Of a stretch of DNA of 64,000 bases, positions 3,335-64,000 are shown one piece after another. This stretch comes from Mobula hypostoma (lineage: Eukaryota). The position numbers and the translations under genes are program-made. Within the stretch, counting starts at the first letter, position 1; each line of letters begins with the position of its first letter. The notes beneath the pieces were generated by a model, which did not search any database, was not told the origin of the DNA, and saw nothing but the letters and a program-made list of their open reading frames with translations. The stretch covers positions 38,070,001-38,134,000 of the forward strand of contig NC_086108.1 in the NCBI RefSeq assembly GCF_963921235.1, in the 5' to 3' direction.

Positions 3335-5188
3335 CTACTCCCACCGACCTGCACTCAGTCCATAAGCCTCCATTCCTTTCCTGTCCATATAGCTATCCAA
3401 TTTAACTTTAAATGACAACATCGAACATGCCTCTACCACTTCTGCTGGAAGCTCGTTCCACACAGATACCACTCTTTGAGTAAAGAAGTTCCCCCTCATG
3501 TTACCCCTAAACTTTTGCCCTTTAACTCTCAACTCATGTCCTCTTATTTGAATCTCCCCCATTCTCAGTGGAAAAAGCCTATCCACATCAACTTTATCTA
3601 TCCCGCTCATAATTTTAAATACCTCTATCAAGTCCCCCCTCAACCTTCTACGCTCCAAAGAATAAAGACTCAACTTGTTCAACCTATCTCTGTAACTTAG
3701 GAGATGAAACCCAGGTAACATTCTAGTAAATCTTCTCCGTACTCTCTCAAATTTGTTGAGATCTTTCCTATAATTCGGTGACCAGAACTGTACACAATAT
3801 TTCAAATTTGGCCTTACCAATGCCTTGTACAATTTCAACATTACATCCCAACTCCTGTACTCAATGCTCTGATTTATAAAGGCCAGCATACTAAAAGCTT
3901 TCTTCACCACCCTATCCACATGAGATTCCACTTTCAGGGAACTATGCACCATTATTCCTAGATCCCTCTGTTCTACTGCATTCTTCAATGCCCTACCATT
4001 TACCATGTATGTCCTATTTTGATTAGTCCTATCAAAATGTAGCACCTCACATTTATCAGCATTAAACGCCATCTGCCATCTTTCAGCCCACTCTTTTAAC
4101 TGGCCTAAATCTCTCTGCAAGCTTTGAAAACCTACTTCATTATCCACAACTCCACCTATCTTAGGATCATCTGCATACTTAATAATCCAATTTACCACCC
4201 CATCATCCAGATCATTAATGTATATGACAAACAACATTAGATCCAGTACAGATCCCTGAAGCACACCACTAGTCACCGGCCTCCAATCTGATAAACAATT
4301 ATCCACCACTACTCTCTGGCGTCTCTCATCCAGCCACTGCTGAATCCATTTTACTACTTCAATATTAATACCTAATGATTGAATCTTCCTAACTAACCTT
4401 CCGTGTGGAACCTTGTCAAAGGCCTTTCTGAAGTCCATATAGACAACATCCACCATTTTACCCTCGTCAACTTTCCTAGTAGCCTCTTCAAAAAATTCAA
4501 TAAGATTTGTCAAACATGACCTTCCACGCACAAATCCATGTTGACTGTTCCTAATCAGACCCTGTCTATCCAGATAATTATATATACCATCTCTAAGAAT
4601 ACTTTCCATCAATTTACCCACCACTGACATCAAACTCACAGGCCGATAATTACTAAGTTTACTCTTAGAACACTTCTTAAACAATAGAACAACATGAGCA
4701 ATATGCCAATCCTCCGGCATTATCCCCGTTTCTAATGACATTTGAAATATTCCGGTCAGAGCCCCTGCTATTTCCACACTAACTTCCTTCATATTCCTAG
4801 GGAATATCCTGTCGGGACCTGGAGACTTATCCACTTTTATATTCCTTAAAAGCACCAGTACTTCCTCTTCTTTAATCATCATAGTTTCCATAACTACCCT
4901 TCTTGTTTCCCTTACCTTGCACAATTCAATATCCTTCTCCTTAGTGAATACTGAAGAAAAGAAATTGTTCAAAATCTCCCCCATCTCTTTTGGCTCCGCA
5001 CATAGCTGTCCACTCTGATTCTCTAAGGGACCAATTTTATCCCTCACTATCCCTTTGCTATTAATATAACTGTAGAAACCCTTTGGATTTATTTTCACCT
5101 TACTTGCCAAAGCAACATCATATCTTCTTTTAGCTTTTCTAATTTCTTTCTTAAGATTCCTTTTACATTCTTTATATTCCTCGAGCAC
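3335..5188 (-). pseudogene. CR1 ORF2 reverse transcriptase portion (617 aa open)
   Basis: [38 protein letters not shown] and KYADD motifs. Separated from its endonuclease by the nested insertions. Confidence 0.9.
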
Positions 5189-5217
5189 CCCATTTACTCC
5201 AAGCTACACATATTTAT

Positions 5218-6643: not shown

Positions 6644-6719
6644 TTTGAACGCTAAATTTGGGATGGGGTAAATTGATTGGGTTAAAATTCCCGAAAGAAA
6701 GAAAAGACAAACAGCAGAA

Positions 6720-9560
6720 ATGGAGATTGAGGAATTTCTAAAGGTGCCGACCTTGGGGGCATTAGAGGATGCCAGGAAAGCGGAATTGGCAGCTGTGGCC
6801 AAATGGTTGAATCTTGTTAAGGGGAAGTCGACAATGAGGAGAGAGGAGATACATAGAGTTATCGTAGAGCACAATGTATCTAAAGGTGTGTTTCCCCAAG
6901 GGGAGCTGGAAGTGATATCTATTGGAAAACCTGGTGGAGACGCAGTACAGGTGCAGCTTGAAAAACTGAGACTCGAGCACGAGTTCCGGGTACGGCAGCT
7001 AGAACACGAAGAGAAACAGTTAGAATGGCAAGAGAGAGAGAGGGACAAACAGTTGGAGCGAGAAGAGAAACAGAGGGAAAGGGAATTCGAGCTGGAGAGG
7101 TTAAAGATAAGGGCAGAGCAGGGGCCCATGCCGAACCAAGGTGGAGGGTTCAGGGCGACCCAGGAGGTTAGGCTGGTTCCCCCATTTGACGATACCGATG
7201 TGGATCGGTACTTTCTCCATTTCGAAAAAGTTGCTGCAAGTCAGGACTGGCCGAGGGATAAGTGCGCTGTTTTGCTTCAGAGTGTACTTAAAGGGAAACC
7301 CCAACAAGCTTACTCGGCTTTGTCTGCAGAAGATGCCCAGAGGTATGAGGTGGTGAAAGAGGCCATCCTCAGGATTTATGAGTTGATCCTGGAGGCATAC
7401 CGGCAGAGGTTCCGGAATGCGAGGAAGCAGTGGGACCGCACGTATTTAGAGTTTGTCCATGAGATGCAGACATATTGTGAGTGTTGGTGCGCCTCGAAGG
7501 GGGTAGATGGGGATTATGACAGACTGCTACAGCTGATCCTGATTGAGCAGTTTAAAGATTGTGTCCCTGACGGTATGAGACCCTACCTAGATGAGAAAGA
7601 GGCAGCCATGTTAGCTACAACTGCTAAGTTAGCGGATGAGTACGCGTTGACGCATAAAATGAAGTTTGCCCCGAGTAAAGGCTACCAGAAGGGTAGTCAG
7701 GACGGTGGGGAGAGTCCGCCGGAAAAGTCAGTAAGTGAGCCGGGGACTAGTGAGAAGGATAAGGTAGACCAGGAGCAGTCTGGTACGAAGTCTTCTGGGG
7801 TCGTCTGTTATAATTGTGGGAAAGTCGGACACTTTGCGTCCAGGTGCTTTGCCCCAAAGAAGGAGACGGGAAAAGGAAAAACGGCGATTTCGACTGGCTG
7901 TATCGAGCTGATAAATGAACCGCTAGGAGGGGAAAGGTCTGCCAAAGTTCAGGAAGGGCGCGAGAGGTTTATCTCGGCCGGATTGGTGTCGGTGAAGGAA
8001 GGGTTAAACCCAGTTCCAGTACGGATCTGGAGAGACACGGGAGCGTGTCAGTCATTAATATTGAAGAGTGTGTTAGAGTTTAGTTCAGAGACCCAGGCTG
8101 GGGAGGTCAGGGTCAAAGGTATTGGGGAAGGGACAGAAGCAGTACCGTTGCACCAGATACACCTACAAAGCAACTTGGTCTCTGGACTAGTCACGATCGG
8201 GGTGAGGCCCGAATTACCGATGAAAGGCGTGGAAGTCTTGCTCGGTAGTGACCTCGCCGGGGGAATTGTGTTCTCGGCAGTGAGATTGATAGGTCAGCCT
8301 GCCAGCATTGAGGCCCCGCCCATGGACTCACAGGTTCATCCTGTTTGCGCAGTGACTCACTGTATGTCCAGAGACACTGCTGAGATGTTTCTACCAGCCT
8401 TGTATGAGGAGGGGGTAGAAAGTGAAAAGAAGGAGCGTAATGAAACAGGAGGAAGTGGGGAAATTAAGGTAGATTTATCATTAGAAAAGAAGGACTTTAT
8501 ACAGGCACAGGAGCAAGACGAGGAAACAACTCTCTGTGAAACAGAATTAGGAAGGGAGCGAGTGAATTATGGTGTGAAGGGGGAGGTACTAAGGAAGGAA
8601 GGGAGACCAAGTACCGCAGATGAGGAATGGGGGGTGGTGCAAAAGAGTTATGGGGATGAGATTTTTAACCTGGCCCACAAGGTACCCCTCGGTGGACATT
8701 TTGAGGTGCTGAAGGAAACAGTCGGCGGAGCCATGAGAGAGTTTTTCTGGCTGCACAGAAGGAAAGATGTTATTGATTATTGCAGACGCAAACTGAGACG
8801 GTCACAGGCTTTTGATATGCTAACAAACCTAGTCGGTGTTAGCGCGGAAATCAATGAAGCTAGGGTGCCACCTGATCAAGGGAAAAACCATTTTGAAAAG
8901 ATGGGTATGGTACCGACCAGATGGGAGAAGGCTACTGTTTTGGCCAGCTCTGCTGTTAAGGTCTCTCCCTTAATCCCCGAACAAAGCGACCCTTTAGGAG
9001 AGCTAATTAAATGGCTCGCACACGTGTGTTTGATTGTCCCGAGGCGATGCAAAGAACTAGGACGTTGGGTGGTGTTTGTCACGCTAGGTCAGCCTAGTGA
9101 GCAACAACCCTATAGAATGAGTAATTCAGTGACAAAAGGGCTAAAGAACACAGAAGTGTATATTGGCGATGTAATACGGCTCTCTGAAGCTAGCTTGATA
9201 GTGAACCTTGAAAAAAATGAGTTCGACCACACGAAGGTCACTTATCTGGGAATTGTGGTAACACAGGGGCAGCTGGCAGCAATGCAAGCTAAGGTGCGGG
9301 CTATCTCTGACATCCCAACCCCGACAGACAAGAAGGCCCTCAGAAGGCTCTTGGAGATTGTGGGCTACTGTAGGAAGTTTTGCAATGACTTTGCGGGTAC
9401 TACTAAGCCCTTGCGAAAGAAAACTAAGTCGGGATGGGGCGACCCTTGTTATCGTGGTCCGGGACGAAACCCAATGAGAGGTTACACTGATCACAATTCA
9501 CCAGTGTTTTCGGCCACTATGAAGGTTGCTAAGTTGGAGCCTGGTTTAGAGGATTATTAA
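6720..9560 (+). CDS. Gag (coiled coil, SCAN/capsid, CCHC knuckle) plus protease plus truncated INT/RT/RNase H polyprotein, 946 aa
   Basis: SCAN-like EAYRQRFR...LILIEQF...AKLADEY; CYNCGKVGHFASRC; protease IWRDTGA; integrase HH segment AHKVPLGGHF; RT remnants EVYIGDVI and KVTYLGIVV; RNase H remnant YTDHN. Confidence 0.85.
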   Translation: MEIEEFLKVPTLGALEDARKAELAAVAKWLNLVKGKSTMRREEIHRVIVEHNVSKGVFPQGELEVISIGKPGGDAVQVQLEKLRLEHEFRVRQLEHEEKQLEWQERERDKQLEREEKQREREFELERLKIRAEQGPMPNQGGGFRATQEVRLVPPFDDTDVDRYFLHFEKVAASQDWPRDKCAVLLQSVLKGKPQQAYSALSAEDAQRYEVVKEAILRIYELILEAYRQRFRNARKQWDRTYLEFVHEMQTYCECWCASKGVDGDYDRLLQLILIEQFKDCVPDGMRPYLDEKEAAMLATTAKLADEYALTHKMKFAPSKGYQKGSQDGGESPPEKSVSEPGTSEKDKVDQEQSGTKSSGVVCYNCGKVGHFASRCFAPKKETGKGKTAISTGCIELINEPLGGERSAKVQEGRERFISAGLVSVKEGLNPVPVRIWRDTGACQSLILKSVLEFSSETQAGEVRVKGIGEGTEAVPLHQIHLQSNLVSGLVTIGVRPELPMKGVEVLLGSDLAGGIVFSAVRLIGQPASIEAPPMDSQVHPVCAVTHCMSRDTAEMFLPALYEEGVESEKKERNETGGSGEIKVDLSLEKKDFIQAQEQDEETTLCETELGRERVNYGVKGEVLRKEGRPSTADEEWGVVQKSYGDEIFNLAHKVPLGGHFEVLKETVGGAMREFFWLHRRKDVIDYCRRKLRRSQAFDMLTNLVGVSAEINEARVPPDQGKNHFEKMGMVPTRWEKATVLASSAVKVSPLIPEQSDPLGELIKWLAHVCLIVPRRCKELGRWVVFVTLGQPSEQQPYRMSNSVTKGLKNTEVYIGDVIRLSEASLIVNLEKNEFDHTKVTYLGIVVTQGQLAAMQAKVRAISDIPTPTDKKALRRLLEIVGYCRKFCNDFAGTTKPLRKKTKSGWGDPCYRGPGRNPMRGYTDHNSPVFSATMKVAKLEPGLEDY

Positions 9561-22050: not shown

Positions 22051-22264
22051 TAAAAAATCTTTTTAACTTTTCAATGCTTATCAACTGATTGAATTATTCA
22101 AAGGAATTAAAATCAATTCTGCACCAAAGTGTGGTAAGTATTCTTTAACGCAATTAGCCAGCTACTCATAATTCTTAGCCATACATGTACTGAAAGGAAA
22201 TACTATCCACCATTTTAACAGCATGACCCAGAAAAGGCTGTTACCTTTTGTATTTTTATTTGAT

Positions 22265-25125
22265 GTAATAAGGTGGATGAATTGAAAGTGCAGATTGTTA
22301 TTAATGATTATGATATAGTTGGGATCACAGAGACATGGCTCCAGGGTGACCAGGGATGGGAGCTCAACGTTCAGGGATATTCAATATTCAGGAGGGATAG
22401 ACGTGAAGGAAGGGGAGGTGGGGTGGCGTTGCTGGTTAAAGAAGAGATTAACGCAATAGAAAGGAAGGACAGAAGCCGGGAAGATGTGGAATCGATATGG
22501 GTAGAGCTGCGTAACACTAAGGGGCAGAAGACGCTGGTGGGAGTTGTCCACAGGCCACCTAACAGTAGTAGTGAGGTCGGAGATGGTATTAAACAGGAAA
22601 TTAGAAATGTGTGCAATAAAGGAACAGCAGTTATAATGGGTGACTTCAATCTACATGTAGATTGGGTGAACCAAATTGGTAAAGGTGCTGAGGAAGAGGA
22701 TTTCTTGGAATGTATGCAGGATGGTTTTTTGAACCAACATGTCGAGGAACCAACTAGAGAGCAGGCTATTCTGGACTGGGTTTTGAGCAATGAGGAAGGG
22801 TTAATTAGCGATCTTGTCGTGAGAGGCCCCTTGGGTAAGAGTGACCATAATATGGTGGAATTCATCATTAGTATGGAGAGTGACATAGTTAATTCAGAAA
22901 CAAAGGTTCTGAACTTAAAGAGGGGTAACTTTGAAGGTATGAGACGTGAATTAGCTAAGATAGACTGGCAAATGACACTTAAAGGATTGACGGTGGATAT
23001 GCAATGGCAAGCATTTAAAGGTTGCATGGATGAACTACAACAATTGTTCATCCCAGTTTGGCAAAAGAATAAATCAAGGAAGGTAGTGCACCCGTGGCTG
23101 ACAAGAGAAATTAGGGATAGTATCAATTCCAAAGAAGTAGCATACAAATTAGCCAGAGAAAGTGGCTCACCTGAGGACTGGGAGAAATTCAGAGTTCAGC
23201 AGAGGAGGACAAAGGGCTTAATTAGGAAGGGGAAAAAAGATTATGAGAGAAAACTGGCGGGGAACATAAAACCGGACTGTAAAAGCTTTTATAGATATGT
23301 AAAAAGGAAAAGACTGGTAAAGCCAAATGTAGGTCCCCTGCAGACAGAAACAGGTGAATTGATTATGGGGAGCAAGGACATGGCAGACCAATTGAATAAT
23401 TACTTTGGTTCTGTCTTCACTAAGGAGAACATAAATAATCTTCCAGAAATAGTAAGGGACAGAGGGTCCAGTGAGATGGAGGAACTGAGTGAAATACATG
23501 TTAGTAGGGAAGTGGTGTTAGGTAAATTGAAGGGATTGAAGGCAGATAAATCCCCAGGGCCAGATGGTCTGCATCCCAGAGTGCTTAAGGAAGTAGCCCA
23601 AGAAATAGTGGATGCATTAGTGATAATTTTTCAAAACTCGTTAGATTCTGGACTAGTTCCTGAGGATTGGAGGGTGGCTAATGTAACCCCACTTTTTAAA
23701 AAAGGAGGGAGAGAGAAACCGGGGAATTATAGACCGGTTAGCCTAACGTCGGTGGTGGGGAAACTGCTGGAGTCAGTTATCAAGGATGTGATAACAGCAC
23801 ATTTGGAAAGCGGTGAAATGATCCGACAAAGTCAGCATGGATTTGTGAAAGGAAAATCATGTCTGACGAATCTCATAGAATTTTTTGAGGATGTAACTAG
23901 TAGAGTGGATAGGGGAGAACCAGTGGATGTGGTATATTTGGATTTTCAAAAGGCTTTTGACAAGGTCCCACACAGGAGATTAGTGTGCAAACTTAAAGCA
24001 CACGGGGGTAAGGTATTGGTGTGGGTGGAGAATTGGTTAGCAGACAGGAAGCAAAGAGTGGGAATAAACGGGACCTTTTCAGAATGGCAGGCGGTGACTA
24101 GTGGGGTACCGCAAGACTCAGTGCTGGGACCCCAGTTGTTTACAATATATATTAATGACTTGGATGAGGGAATTAAATGCAGCATCTCTAAGTTTGCGGA
24201 TGACACGAAGCTGGGTGGCAGTGTTAGCAGTGAGGAGGATGCTAAGAGGATGCAGGGTGACTTGGATAGGTTGGGTAGTGGGCAAACTCATGGCAGATGC
24301 AATTTAATGTGGATAAATGTGAAGTTATCCACTTTGGTGGCAAAAATAGGAAAACAGGTTATTATCTGAATGGTGGCCGATTAGGAAAAGGGGAGGTGCA
24401 ATGAGACCTGGGTGTCATTATACACCAGTCATTGAAAGTGGGCATGCATGTACAGCAGGCGGTGAAAAAGGCGAATGGTATGCTGGCATTTATAGCGAGA
24501 GGATTCGAGTACAGGAGCAGGGAGGTACTACTGCAGTTGTACAAGGCCATGGTGAGACCACACCTGGAGTATTGTGTGCAGTTTTGGTCCCCTAAACTGA
24601 GGAAAGACATCTTTGCCATAGAGGGAGTACAAAGAAGGTTCACCAGATTGATTCCTGGGATGGCAGGACTTTCATATGAAGAAAGACTGGATGAACTGGG
24701 CTTGTACTCGTTGGAATTTAGAAGATTGAGGGGGGATCTGATTGAAACGTATAAGATCCTAAAGGGATTGGACAGGCTAGATGCAGGAAGATTGTTCCCG
24801 ATGTTGGGGAAGTCCAGAACGAGGGGTCACAGTTTGAGGATAGAGGGGAAGCCTTTTAGGACCGAGATTAGGAAAAACTTCTTCACACAGAGAGTGGTGA
24901 ATCTGTGGAATTCTCTGCCACAGGAAACTGTTGAGGCCAGTTCATTGGCTATGTTTAAGAGGGAGTTAGATATGGCCCTTGTGGCTACAGGGGTCAGGGG
25001 GTATGGAGGGAAGGCTGGGGCGGGGTTCTGAGTTGGATGATCGGCCATGATCATAATAAATGGCGGTGCAGGCTCGAAGGGCCGAATGGCCTACTCCTGC
25101 ACCTATTTTCTATGTTCTATGTTTC
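22265..25125 (+). mobile_element. CR1 LINE, 5'-truncated, nearly complete ORF2 (young copy)
   Basis: ORF 22273-24369 has APE (ITETW, GDFN, SDH) and RT (FADD); frameshift near 24277; C-terminus 24432-25031; tail ttctatgttctatg. Confidence 0.93.
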
Positions 25126-25240: not shown

Positions 25241-25300
25241 CTTATAGCTGAGATAAGCCAACAGCATTGTTTCAAAGAAACTTATCAAGGCCACGGTAAC
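25241..25300 (-). CDS. KCNT2: Internal coding exon (60 bp) of KCNT2, S2 helix
   Basis: tttcctttcag|GTT ACC GTG ... AGC TAT AAG|gtaagc gives VTVALISFFETMLLAYLSYK. Compare KCNT2 [20 protein letters not shown]. Confidence 0.93.
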
Positions 25301-27399: not shown

Positions 27400-29450
27400 G
27401 AGTAAGGGGCGACCGTGGATGACAAGGGAAGTCAAGAACAGTATAAAAATAAAAGAGAGGAAGTATAACATAACAAGGATGAGTGGGAAGCCAGAGGATT
27501 GGGAAACTTTTAAGGAGCAATAGAAGATAACTAAAAAGGCAATACGGGGGGAAAAGATGAGGTACGAAGGTAAACTAGCCAAGAATATCGAGGAGGATAG
27601 TTAGAGCTTCTTTAGGTATGTGAAGAGAAAAAAGTTAGTTAAGACCAAAGTTGGGCCCTTGAAGACAGAAACGAGTGAAATTACTATGGGGAGCAAGGAA
27701 ATGGCAAACAAGCTGAGAAGGTACTTTGGATCTCTCTTCACTAGGGAAGACACAAACAATCTCCCAGATGTAATAGTAGCCAGAGGACCTAGGGTAACAG
27801 AGGAACTAAAGGAAATTCGCATCAGGCACAAAATGGTGTTGGGTAAACTGACGAGACTGAAGGTTGATAAATCCCCAGGGCCTGATGGTCTGCATCCCAG
27901 GGTACTTAAGGAGGTGGCTCGGGAAATCGTGGAGGCATTGGTAATCATTTTCCAATGTTCTATAGAGTCAGGATCAGTTCCTGTAGATTGGAAGGTAGCT
28001 AATGTTACCCCATTTTTTAAGAAAGGAGGAGGAGAGAAAACAGACAATTATAGATCAGTTAGTCTGACATCAGTGGTAGGGAAGATGCTGGAATCAATTA
28101 CGAAAGATGTATTAGTGGCATATTTGGATAGCAGTGGCAGGATAAGTCCGAGTCAGCATAGATTTACGAAGGGGAAATCATGCTTGACTAATCTTCTGGA
28201 ATTTTTTGAGAATGTGACTATGAAAATGGACATGGGAAAGCCGGTGGATGTAGTGTACCTGGACTTTCAGAAAGCCTTTGATAAGGTCCCATATAGGATG
28301 TTAGTGTGCAAAATTAGAGCAAATGGTATTGGGGGTAGGGTACTGACACGGATAGAAAATTGGTTGGCAGACAGGAAACAAAGAGTAGGGATTAACGGTT
28401 CCTTTTCAGAATGGCGGGCAGTGACTAGTGGGGTTTCGCAAGGCTCGGTGCTGGGATCGCAGCTATTTACAATATACGTTAATGATTTAGATGAAGGGAT
28501 TAAAGGTAACATTAGAAAATTTGCAGATGACACAAAGCTGAGTGGCAGTGTGAAATGTGAGGAGGATGTTATGAGAATACAGGGTGACTTGGACAGGTTG
28601 GGTGAGTGGCAGATGCATGGCAGGTGCAGTTTAATGTGGATAAATGTGAGGTTATCCACTTTGGTAGGAAGAACAGGAAGGCAGATTACTATCTGAATGG
28701 TGTCAAGTTAGGAAAAGGGGAAGTACAACGAGATCTAGGTGTCCTTGTTCATCAGTCACTGAAAGTAAGCATGCAGGTACAGCAGGCAGTGAAGAAAGCT
28801 AATGGCATGTTGGCCTTCATAACAAGAGGAATTGAGTATAGGAGCAAAGAGCTCCTTCTGCAGTTGTACAGGGCCCTGGTGAGACCACACCTGGCATATT
28901 GTGTACAGTTTTGGTCTCCAAATTTGAGGAAGGACATTCTAGCTATTGAGGGAGTGCAGCATAGGTTCACGAGGTTAATTCCCAGGATGGAGCGACTGTC
29001 ATATGTTGAAAGATTGGAGCAACTGGGCTTGTATACACTGGAATTTAGAAGGATGAGAGGGCATCTGATTGAAACATATAAGATTATTAAGGGATTGGAC
29101 ACGCTGGAGGAAGGAAACATGTTCCCGATGTTGGGGGAGTTCGGATCCAGAGGCCACAGTTTAAGAATAAGACATAGACAATTTAGAGTGGAGTTGAGGA
29201 AAAACTTTTTCACACAGAGGGTTGTGGTTCTGTGGAATGCTCTGCCTCAGAAGGCAGCAGAGGCCAAATCTCTGGATTCTTTCAAAAAAGAGTTAGATAG
29301 AGCTCTTAAAGATAGCGGAGAAGGGATATGGGGAGAAGGCAGGAAAACGGTACTGATTGTGGATGATCAGCCATGATCATAGTGAATGGTGGTGCTGGCT
29401 CGAAGGGCTGAATGGCCTACTCCTGCACCTATTGTGTATTGTCTATTGAT
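27400..29450 (+). mobile_element. CR1 LINE, 5'-truncated
   Basis: RT ORFs 27620-28696 (FADD) and 28606-29376; tail tattgtgtattgtctattg. Confidence 0.92.
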
Positions 29451-41500: not shown

Positions 41501-43729
41501 TGGCTATTCCTTCCACAGTTGTGATTTTGTTTGGCACCAGGTACATACTTTTCAACTGGAGTTATCTGCTGCAGTATTTATTCCATTAAGAACAGATCAA
41601 AGTAATTTCCTACTCCTGGTTGCAGGTAATGAACAATAACTACCAAATGATACATTTTTGGGCAGGTTGCAATATGGTTATAATACATTTATAAGCATGC
41701 TCCATTAACCTCACTTACGAGTTTTATATTACACAACAACTGTCTTCCATTTAACCAATGAGTTACAATCAAATCTTTATTACCAGCAGTCTGCTACGGC
41801 CAGCTCAAAGTACAGTGTGAACAGTTCCTATTACCATCTCCATTTTTTAGATAAGTTACATCCCTGGAAATCCAACATCTTGGGCAACTTTACTTGTTTC
41901 AATGTTTGTCCTTCCAACTGAATCACTTAATTCATTATCTCAATGAATGATTAAGCCCAACTTCAGGTATTCCAAATCAGGAATGGCATCTACATTTCAG
42001 AATTTCATCAGCTACCAGATGTCCACTCAGTATCGCTTTATAACCTGTGAAAGTGGTTCAAAAGTACAACCATCAATACAGATACAACAGAGCTTACTGT
42101 TGTTTTATTTCCCCCACAAGTAGCCTTTCTGTGTGGAAACTCATCCCCAAATAGTGCTATATTGTTCTGTGTTTCTTTTAATCCTGCCATATAATACAAT
42201 CCATTAGCTAACAGCATTAAAGGAACCACAGAAAAATATAGCACATGAAGCATATATTATGAAAGGTACTGTATAAATTAAATGATTTGTTTTCTTTTGA
42301 ACTGCTAGACTAATAACATGAGCCTTTTTAAAGTTGCACCAAAACACGAGTCTCACATCACAGTAGCAATTATTAATGTCACCATGAAATCAGACTGTAA
42401 AACAAAATTTGAGCTAAGATATTTAAAAAAATTTTCATCCTTGAGGCAGAAAAAGAGTGGGTGGTTCCCTTCAGACTGAGTTGTTTTTTTCACTATACAC
42501 AGTGGCTCAGTCTGTTCCCGATGTGTGGTATCTGCTTTTTGTCTTGTAGGAACTCCAGCGCCAACGATGATGGCATATTTCTTATATTTTGTAGTACTAG
42601 GAATATCGTATAGACTGATAGCCTTTTAATATTTCCCAAGGCTCATGAAAGGGTCAAAGCAGTCAATACCCTCTGCCAAAAATAAATGGCTCACTGAAAA
42701 ACAATAACATTTCCTGACTATTTTGTGCAGACAGCATAAATTATTTTCAAATTTCAGACAGTAATAATCAGCTTGTGTAGTTAAATGCAAGCCAGAGAAA
42801 GAAAGAATAGAGAGCCACATTAGATTTGTCTGTAAGCTTTCAAAAAATCGGTGAAATCTGACCTTATCTGAAAAGTAATCAAAACTATGAGCAAGCTAAT
42901 GGATGGAAACTAATTTGTTACATGTATGAATGTCAGCCCATTTGTACAGAAAGTCTGTGAGAACTTATGTTTCCAATCAGCACTGTCCCTTCTAAGCTGC
43001 ACAGGTGTGTGACCGTGCAGTAACTGAATCACACTTAGTCTTTGTTGCCATGCAGCTGCAATTTTCCTTTAAATAATGTTAACATAATTTTGAAATCTAG
43101 GTTAATATAATTCTGAAATACCCTGTAATTAATTATGATAATGAATATAATCCATTCATTTTCTAAATAATAAATGTACCACAAAGTTTACTTTGAAATA
43201 TTTTAGAGCTTCAGTGTGTTTACATTGTCAAGGTTTCAAGTTACAACTTATAAAAGTAATTATACTATGGAAGTCGGTAGTTCATTGTTAATGAACTGCC
43301 AGCCTGCTGAACACCAATGCCATCTAATCAAAATATTTTACTTTTACCATTGTGCCTGTCAGCTGTTTTGGCTTGGGTTCAAAATTGTGGTTTCCCTTCC
43401 TTTGATGTGAAAACTTCTAAGTTCTGACTTTTTGGTAATAATCTTTCAAAACAATCATAATCTACAAAGAATTTTTAAATAAAAAATTGTTAGAACAAGG
43501 TAAAAATCTGATACTGTAAAATTGCGTGACTGCGGTTATTTTATTAAAATTATAAATTTTTAATTTGTTAAATTTTTATATTTAAAAATAATTAAACAAT
43601 AATGAAATAATTATTATTATGTTTAGTATTCATAAATAATATTATTTTTAATATCCTAAGGATGTCAAAATAGAAAGCAGAAAACTTAAATGCTTTGAAG
43701 TATAAAATTTGTACAAAGTACAAGGTTTG

Positions 43730-45265
43730 TACTGAAGAAAGTAGCTGGAGAGATTGCAGAGGCATTCATGATGATCTTTCAAGAATCAATAGATTCTGGC
43801 ATTTTACAGGATGACTGCAAAATTGTAAATGTTACTCCACTATTTAAGAAGGGTGGGAGGCAGCAGAAAGGAAACTATAGACCTGTTAGCCTGACATCAG
43901 TGGTTGGGACGTTGTTGGAATTGAGTGTTAGGGATGAGATTACGGAGTACCTGGAGGCACATGTCAAGATAGGCCAAAGACAGCATGGTCTCCTGCAAGG
44001 AAAATCCTGCCTGTCAAATCTACTGCAGTTCTTTGAGGAAATTACAAACAGGGTAGACAAAGGAAATGTAGTAGACGTGAGGTACTTGGATTTTCAAAAG
44101 GCCTTTAACAAGGTGCTGCACATAAGGCTACTTAGCAAGGTAATAGCCCATGGATTTACAGGGAAGTTACTTGCATGGTTGGAGCATTGGCTGGTCCACA
44201 GAAAACAGAGAGTGAGAAATAAGGGATCCTATTCTGGCTGGCTGCAGCTTACCAGTGGAATTTCACAGGGGTCGCTGTTGGGACCGCTGCTTTTTATGAT
44301 GTATGTCAATGATTTGGACCATGCTATTAATGGATTTGTGGCTAAATTTGATGATGATACAAAGATAGGTGGAGGAGCGATTAGTGTTGAGGAGACAGAA
44401 AGACTTTGATAGTTTAGGGGAATGGGCAAAGAAGTGGCAAATGAAATACTATGTTGGAAAGTGTATAGTCATGCACTTTGGTGGAAGAAATAAACGGGCA
44501 GACTGTTATTTAGATGGAGAGAGAATTCAAAATGCAGAGATGCAAAGGGACTTGGGAGTCCTTGTGCAAGATACCCTAAGGGTTAACCTCCAGGTTGAAT
44601 TGGTTATGAAGAAGGCAAGTGCAATGTTGGCATTCATTTCTAAAGGTATAGAATACAAGAGCAGGGATGTGATGTTGAGGCTCTATAAGGCACTCATGAG
44701 ACCCCACTTGGAGTATTGTGTGCAGTTTTGGGCTCCTTATTTTAGAAAGGATATACTGACATAAGAGAGGGTTCAGAGAAGATTCACAAGAATGATTCCA
44801 GGACTAAAAGGGTTACCGTATGAGGAAAGTCTAGCAGCTCTTGGGCTGCATTCCCTGGAGTTCAGGAGAATGAGGGGGGATCTCATAGGAACATTTTGAA
44901 TGTTAAAAGGCCTGAACAGATTAGATATGGCAAAGTTATTTCCCATGGTAGGGGATTCTAGGACAAGAGGGCATGACTTCAGGATTGAAGGACATCCATT
45001 TAGAACTCGGATGTGGAGAAATTACTTTAGGCAGAGGGTGGTAAATCCATGGAATTTGTTGCCATGAGCAGCTGTGGAGGCCAAATCATCGGGTGTATTT
45101 CAGGCAGAGATAGTTATGTTCTTGATTAGCCAGGGCATCAAAGGGTACAGGGTGAAGGCAGGGGAATGGGGGTGACTGGAACAATTAGATAAGCGCATGA
45201 TTGAATGGCAGAGCATATTTGATGGGATAAATGGCCTACTTCTGCTCCTATATCTTATAGTCTAA
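43730..45265 (+). mobile_element. CR1 LINE, 5'-truncated, degraded
   Basis: RT ORF pieces 43768-44409 and 44369-44764; CR1 3' UTR ...atggcctacttctgctcctatatcttat. Confidence 0.9.
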
Positions 45266-50499: not shown

Positions 50500-50548
50500 C
50501 TGTAAACTCCATAAGGGAAGACTTCTTTCTACCCAGATTATAGGAGAC
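50500..50548 (-). CDS. KCNT2: Internal coding exon (49 bp) of KCNT2
   Basis: gatttaccatcag|G TCT CCT ATA ATC TGG GTA GAA AGA AGT CTT CCC TTA TGG AGT TTA CAG|gtaaga gives SPIIWVERSLPLWSLQ. Compare KCNT2 SHIFWVNRSLPLWGLQ; RSLPLW favours KCNT2 over KCNT1. Confidence 0.92.
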
Positions 50549-57261: not shown

Positions 57262-57441
57262 TTCTAAATTAATAAGAGGTCTGGGAACTTACTGTACTTA
57301 TTCACTCCATGCCATCCACCTTAATTGTGACATTTCTGCTGAGGAAAACTTTGATTCATGCTCCTATTCTATTAAGCATATTTTACATTAATTGATGCAT
57401 ATAAAATGTAAATAATACTTACAAAACAACTGAGAACTTAC

Positions 57442-57486
57442 CGGTCAATCTTGCTGAGAGTGTGGTTTTGACTGGAGCAGCCCCAG
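57442..57486 (-). CDS. KCNT2: 45-bp phase-2/phase-2 coding exon, S1-S2 extracellular loop (KCNT1-like, probably a cassette exon)
   Basis: ttttgtgttttgttttataaag|C TGG GGC TGC TCC AGT CAA AAC CAC ACT CTC AGC AAG ATT GAC CG|gtaagt gives (C)WGCSSQNHTLSKID(R). Resembles KCNT1 CWGCPKQNYS...EINW and is in frame with both neighbouring exons. Confidence 0.85.
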
Positions 57487-62224: not shown

Positions 62225-64000
62225 TTCTTTCTTTTTCAATCTTTTTATTAGCTTCATAAAAATAAACATAACACGATAATGTACAAAGTTATTCGGAATA
62301 CATTGTTATAATTAGCATAAGTGATTATAAAGCCAGTTGACACTTAAATGATAAAACTCCCAATCATATAGGATACAAATGAACAATATATAAAAAAGAA
62401 AAATATCTAAAAAAATTCATGAAAAAGGAAAAAAAAAATTATAACCCCCCAATAAAAAACTAATCTGAACAGAATTAATCAACTAAACTAAAAAAAGACA
62501 TGGGCTGTTTGTAACATCGTAAAAAAAGAGAAAGGAGAAAACCTCAGTGTCGACGACTCCGTTCCTCTCAACCAATATTACAAAGAAATAAAATAAGTTT
62601 AGAAAAGGTCAAATTACGTCATATGAAAATGTTGAATAAATGGCCTCCAAGTCTTTTTGAACTTAATAGAGGGATCATAAACAACACATCTAATTTTTTC
62701 CAAATTTAAACACAACATAGTTTGAGAAAATCAATGAAATGTGGTAGGAGGATTAATCTCTTTCCAATTCAGCAAAGTAGATCTTCTAGCCATTAAAGTA
62801 AGAAATGCAATCATCCGACGAGCTGAAGAGGTCAGATGATTTGATTCTATCATTGGTAATCCAAAAATAGCAGTAGTTGGGTGAGGTTGTAAGTCTATAT
62901 TCAAAACCATTGAAATAATATCAAAAATATCTTTCCAATATTTTTCTAACAAAGGACACGACCAAAACACGTGATCTAAAGAAGCTCTCTCAGAATGACA
63001 TCTATCACATATTGGATTAATATAAGAATAATAACGAGATAATTTATCTTTGGACATATGAGCCCTGTGCACTACTTTAAACTGTATCAACACATGTTTA
63101 GCACATATAGAGGATGAGTTAACTAATTGAAGAATTTTTTCCCATTTTTCAATCGGTACCATAATCTTAAGTTCTCTTTCCCAATCAGTTTTAATTTTAT
63201 TACATACATCAGGACATAAATTCATAATTATGTTATAAATAATTGCTACAACACCTTTCTGAAAAAGATTTAAATCTAAATTTTTTTCCAAAATATCCAT
63301 TGGATATAGATGTGGAAAATTAGGAGAAACAGTAATTAAAAAGTTTCTAACCTGTAGTTATCTAAAAAAGTGAGATCTCGGCAAATTATATTTACTAGAT
63401 AATTCTTCAAAGGACATAAAACAATTATCCAAAAATAAATCATGAAATTGTACTATACCTTTGATTTTCCAATCTAAATAAGCTTGATCCATAGTGGAAG
63501 ATTGAAAAAAGAAATTAGATATAATAGGACGTGCTAAAATAAATTGGTTCAACCCAAAAAATTTTTGAAATTGAAACCATATACATAAAGTATGTTTAAC
63601 TATTGGGTTATTCATTTGTTTATATAATTTAGAAAGAATAAAAGGAAGCAAAGTCCCTAAAATAGAACCCAATGAAAACCCTTGTAAAGAATTACATTCA
63701 AGATTTACCCAATGTGGACTTGAAATTACATCTAAGTCCTGTCACCAAAATTTTAAGTATCGAATGTTAATTGCCCAATAGTAAAATCTAAATTTCGGGA
63801 GCGCTAACCCCTCCCCCACCTCTTTTTTAGATTTCTGTAAATGCCTTTTATCTAACCTAGGGTTTTTGTTCTGCCATATATATGAGGAAATTTTTGAATC
63901 AACATTATCGAAAGAAGATTTTGGAATAAAAATTGGTACCATTTGAAATATATATGAAAATTTAGGCAAAATAATCATCTTGATAGCATTGATCCGACCG
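62225..64000 (-). mobile_element. L1-clade LINE 3' portion, runs off the window
   Basis: MIILPKFSYIFQMVPI, GLALPKFRFYYWA, IQFKVVHRAH, CDRCHSERASLDHVFWSC; tail near 62225-62250. Confidence 0.9.

Follow-up and report, generated by a model that had tools for sequence, protein, structure and literature searches.

The loop exon of KCNT1 (Slack, Slo2.2; human 8HIR, chicken 5U70) is the closest described counterpart of an exon that we find in the KCNT2 gene of the ray Mobula hypostoma. The two occupy the same position in the same phase, begin with a CxxC, and carry an N-x-S/T sequon. They differ in that the ray exon belongs to the other paralogue, is 45 nt long as against 60 nt for the KCNT1 exon of the ray genome, and has Arg rather than Trp as its final codon. 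The same exon is already annotated in long-loop NCBI models of KCNT2 from sharks, rays, gar, reptiles, and birds, although the sauropsid versions have their Cys residues six apart. Unlike these models, the database model of the ray gene itself (P0129) is without the exon. Mammalian KCNT2 (Slick, Slo2.1) is the orthologue of the ray gene; none of its models (86/86) has the exon, and the ray reading with the exon skipped gives the same short Trp linker.

Differential exon retention between paralogues has precedents. In the excerpts available, PMC4494069 treats the separation of splice isoforms after gene duplication for mutually exclusive homologous exons, and these excerpts make no mention of KCNT. 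As far as excerpts of PMC4494069 and PMC2077895 go, the present case resembles those systems in that an ancestral exon is kept by one paralogue and lost by the other. It is unlike the excerpted cases of PMC4494069 in that there is a single exon copy, duplication preceded the loss by a long time, and an alternatively spliced stage would here be hypothetical. For Slack, the accessible parts of a 2013 review (PMC3850776) and of an electric-fish preprint (10.1101/2021.03.08.434486) place splice forms at the N-terminus only. The accessible parts of PMC3711925, PMC11181338, PMC13007567, PMC10951377, and PMC4641468 add nothing on the loop, and those of PMC8518378 contain no statement on exons. No publication on the loop exon or its loss was found in the literature searched, a scope that left out most subscription journals and supplements, and an atlas search gave leads only, all under 0.9. 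The exon itself is already annotated in relatives, and its likely lineage-specific loss adds one more case to a known class of change.

Identity of the gene

The window, the whole stretch of 64,000 nt that was analyzed (C50:38,070,001-38,134,000), belongs to a gene that spans ~1.0 Mb on the minus strand of contig C50. This gene is KCNT2, as originally predicted, because both phylogeny and synteny place it there. When 25 selected proteins are placed in a maximum-likelihood tree (LG+G4, without outgroup, P0129 standing for the C50 gene), the C50 gene falls inside KCNT2 and a paralogue on contig C67 falls inside KCNT1, each with 100/100 support. The closest homologues of the C50 gene are stingray and devil-ray KCNT2. 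P0129, which carries the source label Mobula hypostoma KCNT2 isoform X2, is identical to the C50 exons letter for letter, while P0449 matches the exons of the C67 gene, which is a separate KCNT1 with its own loop exon. The ray genome thus holds at least two KCNT genes.

Synteny agrees with the tree. CDC73 lies at C50:36.45 Mb, 1.0 Mb from the 3' end of KCNT2, and a CAMSAP gene lies at 42.36 Mb on the same contig, 3.9 Mb past the 5' end. On C67, a CAMSAP gene lies ~70 kb from the 3' end of KCNT1 on the opposite strand, so that the two stand tail to tail; CAMSAP in this comparison stands for any copy of the family. We take the order CDC73 - KCNT2 - CAMSAP, and KCNT1 beside CAMSAP, to be the human gene order. 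The ray genome has four CAMSAP-type loci with a CKK domain (C12, C50, C67, and C81); humans have three CAMSAP genes.

The same tree contains a third KCNT clade (coelacanth kcnt2b, paddlefish, and softshell turtle; P0174, P0108, and P0112), separate from KCNT1 and KCNT2 with 100/100 support. Coelacanth and turtle also have a true KCNT2. This clade fits badly with the KCNT tree in PMC8518378, where, in the parts seen, only two ohnologues are said to survive; teleost kcnt2b is outside the tree presented here.

The loop exon and its use in RNA

The sequence bears out the predicted coordinates and splice sites as well as the two translations (Table 1). Read on the minus strand from 57486 to 57442, the exon is preceded by ...ttttgttttataaag (an AAG acceptor) and followed by gtaagt, and the introns beside it measure 3,390 and 6,893 nt. 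Inclusion gives ...RNG-CWGCSSQNHTLSKIDR-SPIIW and skipping gives ...RNG-W-SPIIW, with both frames open. The exon contributes 15 residues, among them two Cys (one via the split codon) and an N-H-T sequon, and the CxxC pair that had been read in the included form is present there together with the sequon. The split-codon switch between Cys and Trp, which had been singled out as well, is real but not special: every symmetric phase-2 exon shares codons at both of its ends.

Table 1. Features of the window, with positions counted from its first letter.
Feature	Position	Strand	Basis
KCNT2 S1-S2 loop exon, 45 nt, phase 2-2	57442..57486	-	spliced X1 contig, homologues, chance test
Upstream exon, 100 nt, ends TG, encodes helix preceding loop	60877..60976	-	X1 contig covers full length
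Downstream exon, 49 nt, first base G	50500..50548	-	X1 depth equals that of loop exon
Next KCNT2 coding exon, 60 nt	25241..25300	-	
GCATG at +81, downstream intron	57357..57361	-	weak, post hoc
GCATG at +130, downstream intron	57308..57312	-	weak, post hoc
Open frame, 962 codons, within KCNT2 intron	6672..9560	+	SCAN and zinc-knuckle domains
Intronic frame, likely LINE copy	3335..5203	-	reverse transcriptase/endonuclease
Intronic frame, likely LINE copy	22264..24369	+	reverse transcriptase/endonuclease
Intronic frame, likely LINE copy	27605..28696	+	reverse transcriptase/endonuclease
Intronic frame, likely LINE copy	43699..44409	+	reverse transcriptase/endonuclease
Intronic frame, likely LINE copy	62731..63357	-	reverse transcriptase/endonuclease

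We compared the loop exon with every AG..GT candidate of 30-90 nt that lies between its two neighbors and preserves the frame. The loop exon is the best of 141 against 6/6 homologous loop peptides (shark, gar, and crow KCNT2; ray and rat KCNT1; the paddlefish third paralogue), with z from 4.3 to 11.4. No second copy of the exon was found between the flanking exons. This goes against a mutually exclusive second copy in the ray, an idea prompted by the divergent exon of Hypanus.

The loop exon is spliced in, as seen in one low-depth contig from 1 of 7 runs. This X1 contig (228 nt, depth 4.8) passes from the previous exon through the whole upstream exon and continues for 94 more letters, which equals 45 + 49. 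The first 30 letters beyond the upstream exon are exactly 57457-57486, and the depth in the loop-exon and downstream-exon bins is 0.59 each. The inclusion junction that had been proposed as a check (60877->57486) is therefore carried by X1. The skipping junction (60877->50548) was not seen in X1, the sole run to cross this point, and contigs of this sort drop rare variants. None of the 8 sequencing runs is recorded as RNA, and the kind of the X1 run is a guess, though its contig is spliced. Among the 7 runs examined, X2, X4, and X6 do not cover the three exons, X5 and X7 have nothing of the upstream exon, and X3 ends within it. The exon is likely present in most ray KCNT2 transcripts, a reading whose direct support for inclusion is the single low-depth contig.

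Other open frames lie in the introns. We take the 962-codon frame to be a likely gag of a Gmr1-like LTR retrotransposon, and the reverse-transcriptase/endonuclease frames are likely LINE copies (Table 1).

Distribution and likely loss

Long-loop KCNT2 models occur in 13 genera of sharks and rays and also in gar, turtles, lizards, snakes, and birds (e.g., P0121, P0025, P0131, P0161, and P0146). KCNT1 on C67 has a loop exon of 60 nt in the same phase, and paddlefish, sturgeon, and turtle have a loop exon in their third paralogue. Since the exon occurs in all three KCNT clades, it is by parsimony likely older than the vertebrate KCNT duplications, an argument built on vertebrate sequences without an invertebrate or lamprey outgroup. 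The claim that the exon is an ancestral homologue of the KCNT1 loop exon thus holds up well. The human KCNT1 loop quoted in support of it agrees with PDB 8HIR.

Mammals are different. We examined 88 mammalian KCNT2 models, of which 86 span the region, and 86/86 are short, including those of platypus and echidna. This agrees with the expectation that mammalian KCNT2 is without the exon, and the short loop given for it matches primate and other mammalian models (the human record is not among them). A loss on the mammalian stem is likely, judged from protein models rather than genomic introns, in a sample without marsupials. Ancestral origin and mammalian loss are, taken jointly, well supported. 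Mammals may have fixed a form that was already being skipped; alternatively, a constitutive exon may simply have been lost.

The search for the exon in other relatives had mixed success: it is found in sharks, gar, reptiles, and birds, but the models of coelacanth (3/3), chimaera (6/6 of those complete enough to classify), and tailed frog (4/4) are short. The coelacanth and chimaera models are uninformative, because short models outside mammals likely mirror mammalian templates, as set out below.

Two lineages have unusual versions of the exon. That of Hypanus (P0123) is unusually diverged from that of another stingray (P0121), and its last codon is Trp. Behind this could lie a CG-to-TG reversion, or Hypanus could have a second copy of the exon. 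In gar KCNT2, two acceptors are used in the models (P0100, P0159, and P0160 versus P0161 and P0162), 11 residues apart, with one extra Cys.

Database isoforms as evidence of skipping

Both forms are annotated in several species, which might be taken as proof of a cassette. We dropped this argument, as the short forms are mostly template-shaped. Among NCBI-type models of cartilaginous fish, 19/20 short-loop models fit three mammalian exon patterns, compared with 2/15 long-loop models (Fisher p 9e-7, for rows that are not independent). The three patterns, of 1140, 1116, and 1073 aa, have their counterparts in KCNT2 models from mammals of 1135, 1111, and 1068 aa, which are presumably the curated human KCNT2 isoforms. 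In other non-mammals, 53/61 short models fit these patterns versus 16/57 long ones. These counts exclude models of <900 or >1400 aa or without the loop region, and Ensembl-type models were counted separately. The initial query ended in the Trp of the short form; this biased the ranking toward short models without bearing on the patterns downstream.

KCNT1 serves as a control. Of 155 long proteins, 125 have the long loop, 20 are short, and 10 are unclassified. Three short NCBI models of KCNT1, from two turtles and wood mouse, share the 50- and 24-residue deletions of the 1068-aa mammalian KCNT2 pattern, and a swan model has the 50-residue deletion in common. KCNT1 isoforms with such deletions (P0403, P0404, P0407, and P0358) are likely cross-paralogue annotation artefacts. 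Most short-loop models outside mammals are likely protein-guided projections of mammalian proteins, because they copy mammalian patterns and because even KCNT1 receives such models.

There are exceptions to the template patterns. P0129, from the ray gene, and P0075, from jay, are short yet keep a 19-aa exon that is absent from therian models, and in the softshell-turtle third paralogue all four combinations of loop and 19-aa exon are annotated (P0096 among the exceptions). These models could be chained from protein and RNA evidence.

The 19-aa exon (57 nt, RCK1) is at L033:1757-1816, near 37.911 Mb of C50 and outside the window. Sharks, rays, birds, and monotremes have it, as does the third paralogue of turtle, but it is missing from the therian KCNT2 sequences and the KCNT1 sequences examined. 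In echidna, platypus, and turtle some models include it and others leave it out, and it may be a better cassette candidate than the loop exon.

Alternative explanations

The loop exon might be a regulated cassette in rays or other non-mammals, perhaps enhanced by RBFOX, with mammals having fixed the skipped form. The exon has a suitable build, being 45 nt and symmetric, and its skipping restores a Trp. This Trp would be a by-product, since the exon's own end supplies a Trp codon in most distinct loop peptides (48/58, and 47/48 outside elasmobranch KCNT2). In elasmobranch KCNT2, 9/10 peptides end in Arg and that of Hypanus in Trp. Selection for the Trp codon of the skipped form, as read from the G kept at the start of the downstream exon, is rejected because acceptors favor G at that position.

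We scored the 46 exons of ray KCNT2 and KCNT1 with a leave-one-out matrix and found no weaker sites at the loop exon than at constitutive exons: its donor is the strongest (rank 1/46), and its acceptor, which the original prediction had called weak on account of its AAG, is average for the gene pair (24/46). AAG is found at 7/46 acceptors, core exons included. A cassette origin has a described route in the passage from constitutive exons to alternative ones, which in the excerpts of PMC2077895 can proceed through a relaxed 5' site; the strongest donor of 46 argues against that course here.

The downstream intron contains two GCATG sites (Table 1), presumably the RBFOX core motif. This is the maximum after any of the 46 exons (1/46) and is equaled by 4/426 window tiles, but the count comes from one among 8 motif-by-side tests, and the full TGCATG is present at neither position. 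Neural microexons of the SRRM4 type are very short, with UGC just upstream of the acceptor; the loop exon, at 45 nt and with no TGC at -25..-3, has no such signature.

Short models that escape the templates (P0129, P0075, and the softshell-turtle 2x2 set) speak for a cassette, as do the tailed frog models, although these could reflect a second loss. Against it stand the template shape of most other short models, the current gar RefSeq isoforms (5/5 long among those seen), and the lack of a skip junction in X1. We hold the cassette to be possible but on the doubtful side.

A broader version, in which an ancient switch predating the three vertebrate Slo2 paralogues toggled a glycosylated, disulfide-tied outer cap and is still flipped in non-mammalian KCNT2, is unlikely. 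If it were true, mammals would have divided the two states between genes, with Slack fixed on and Slick fixed off. The absence of the exon from P0129, a model of the same gene, might suggest a decayed relic or an unused chance pseudo-exon, but splicing into an RNA-type contig, conservation across 13 shark and ray genera, and the first rank of 141 make this extremely improbable and, for practical purposes, rule it out. That the gene is KCNT1 and the exon therefore ordinary, as could be read from PDB matches that are KCNT1 only and whose loops resemble this one, deserves virtually no credence given the synteny, the distinct KCNT1 on C67, and the 25-protein tree, which refutes it.

Likely function and history of the loop

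A second Cys and an N-x-S/T sequon occur in all distinct long-loop peptides (58/58), compared with a shuffled rate of 0.36; the search pattern itself demanded the first Cys, and the peptides are related rather than independent. The sequon shifts position between lineages. Cys spacing also varies, with CxxC in 38 peptides, a spacing of six in 19 sauropsid KCNT2 peptides, and another spacing in one gar variant. A universal Cys pair of variable spacing and a universal sequon of variable position are in keeping with selection for an extracellular S1-S2 linker that bears a glycan and a short disulfide, rather than for a fixed redox or metal-binding CxxC site. An AlphaFold model (P0020; pLDDT 50, 8 sequences) has a coil between two helices and was not used as evidence.

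The account that we favor, and judge to be probable on the whole, is that of a conserved ray KCNT2 exon of pre-duplication origin, mostly included, that was lost on the mammalian stem. The exon would have been present before the vertebrate KCNT duplications, kept in ray KCNT2, and included in most transcripts. Its 15 residues would lengthen the extracellular S1-S2 linker, where the loop may be N-glycosylated and closed by a bond between its two Cys. Its effect would most likely be on folding, on delivery to the surface, or on external partners rather than on Na+ gating. Skipping would carry no structural cost, as both the reading frame and the Trp preceding S2 stay intact; loss would thus be easy. 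The exon would then have been lost on the mammalian stem, with or without a cassette stage.

In mammalian Slick, we suggest, it is the short form of the outer loop that is likely derived. The difference in this loop between Slack and Slick would then likely reflect late exon loss rather than a hallmark of the paralogues. Many skip isoforms annotated outside mammals mirror mammalian protein isoforms, and caution is needed, as they are unfit as evidence of splicing. A natural long-loop Slick offers, together with its short-loop counterpart, a clean pair to probe the roles of the loop glycan and cysteines.
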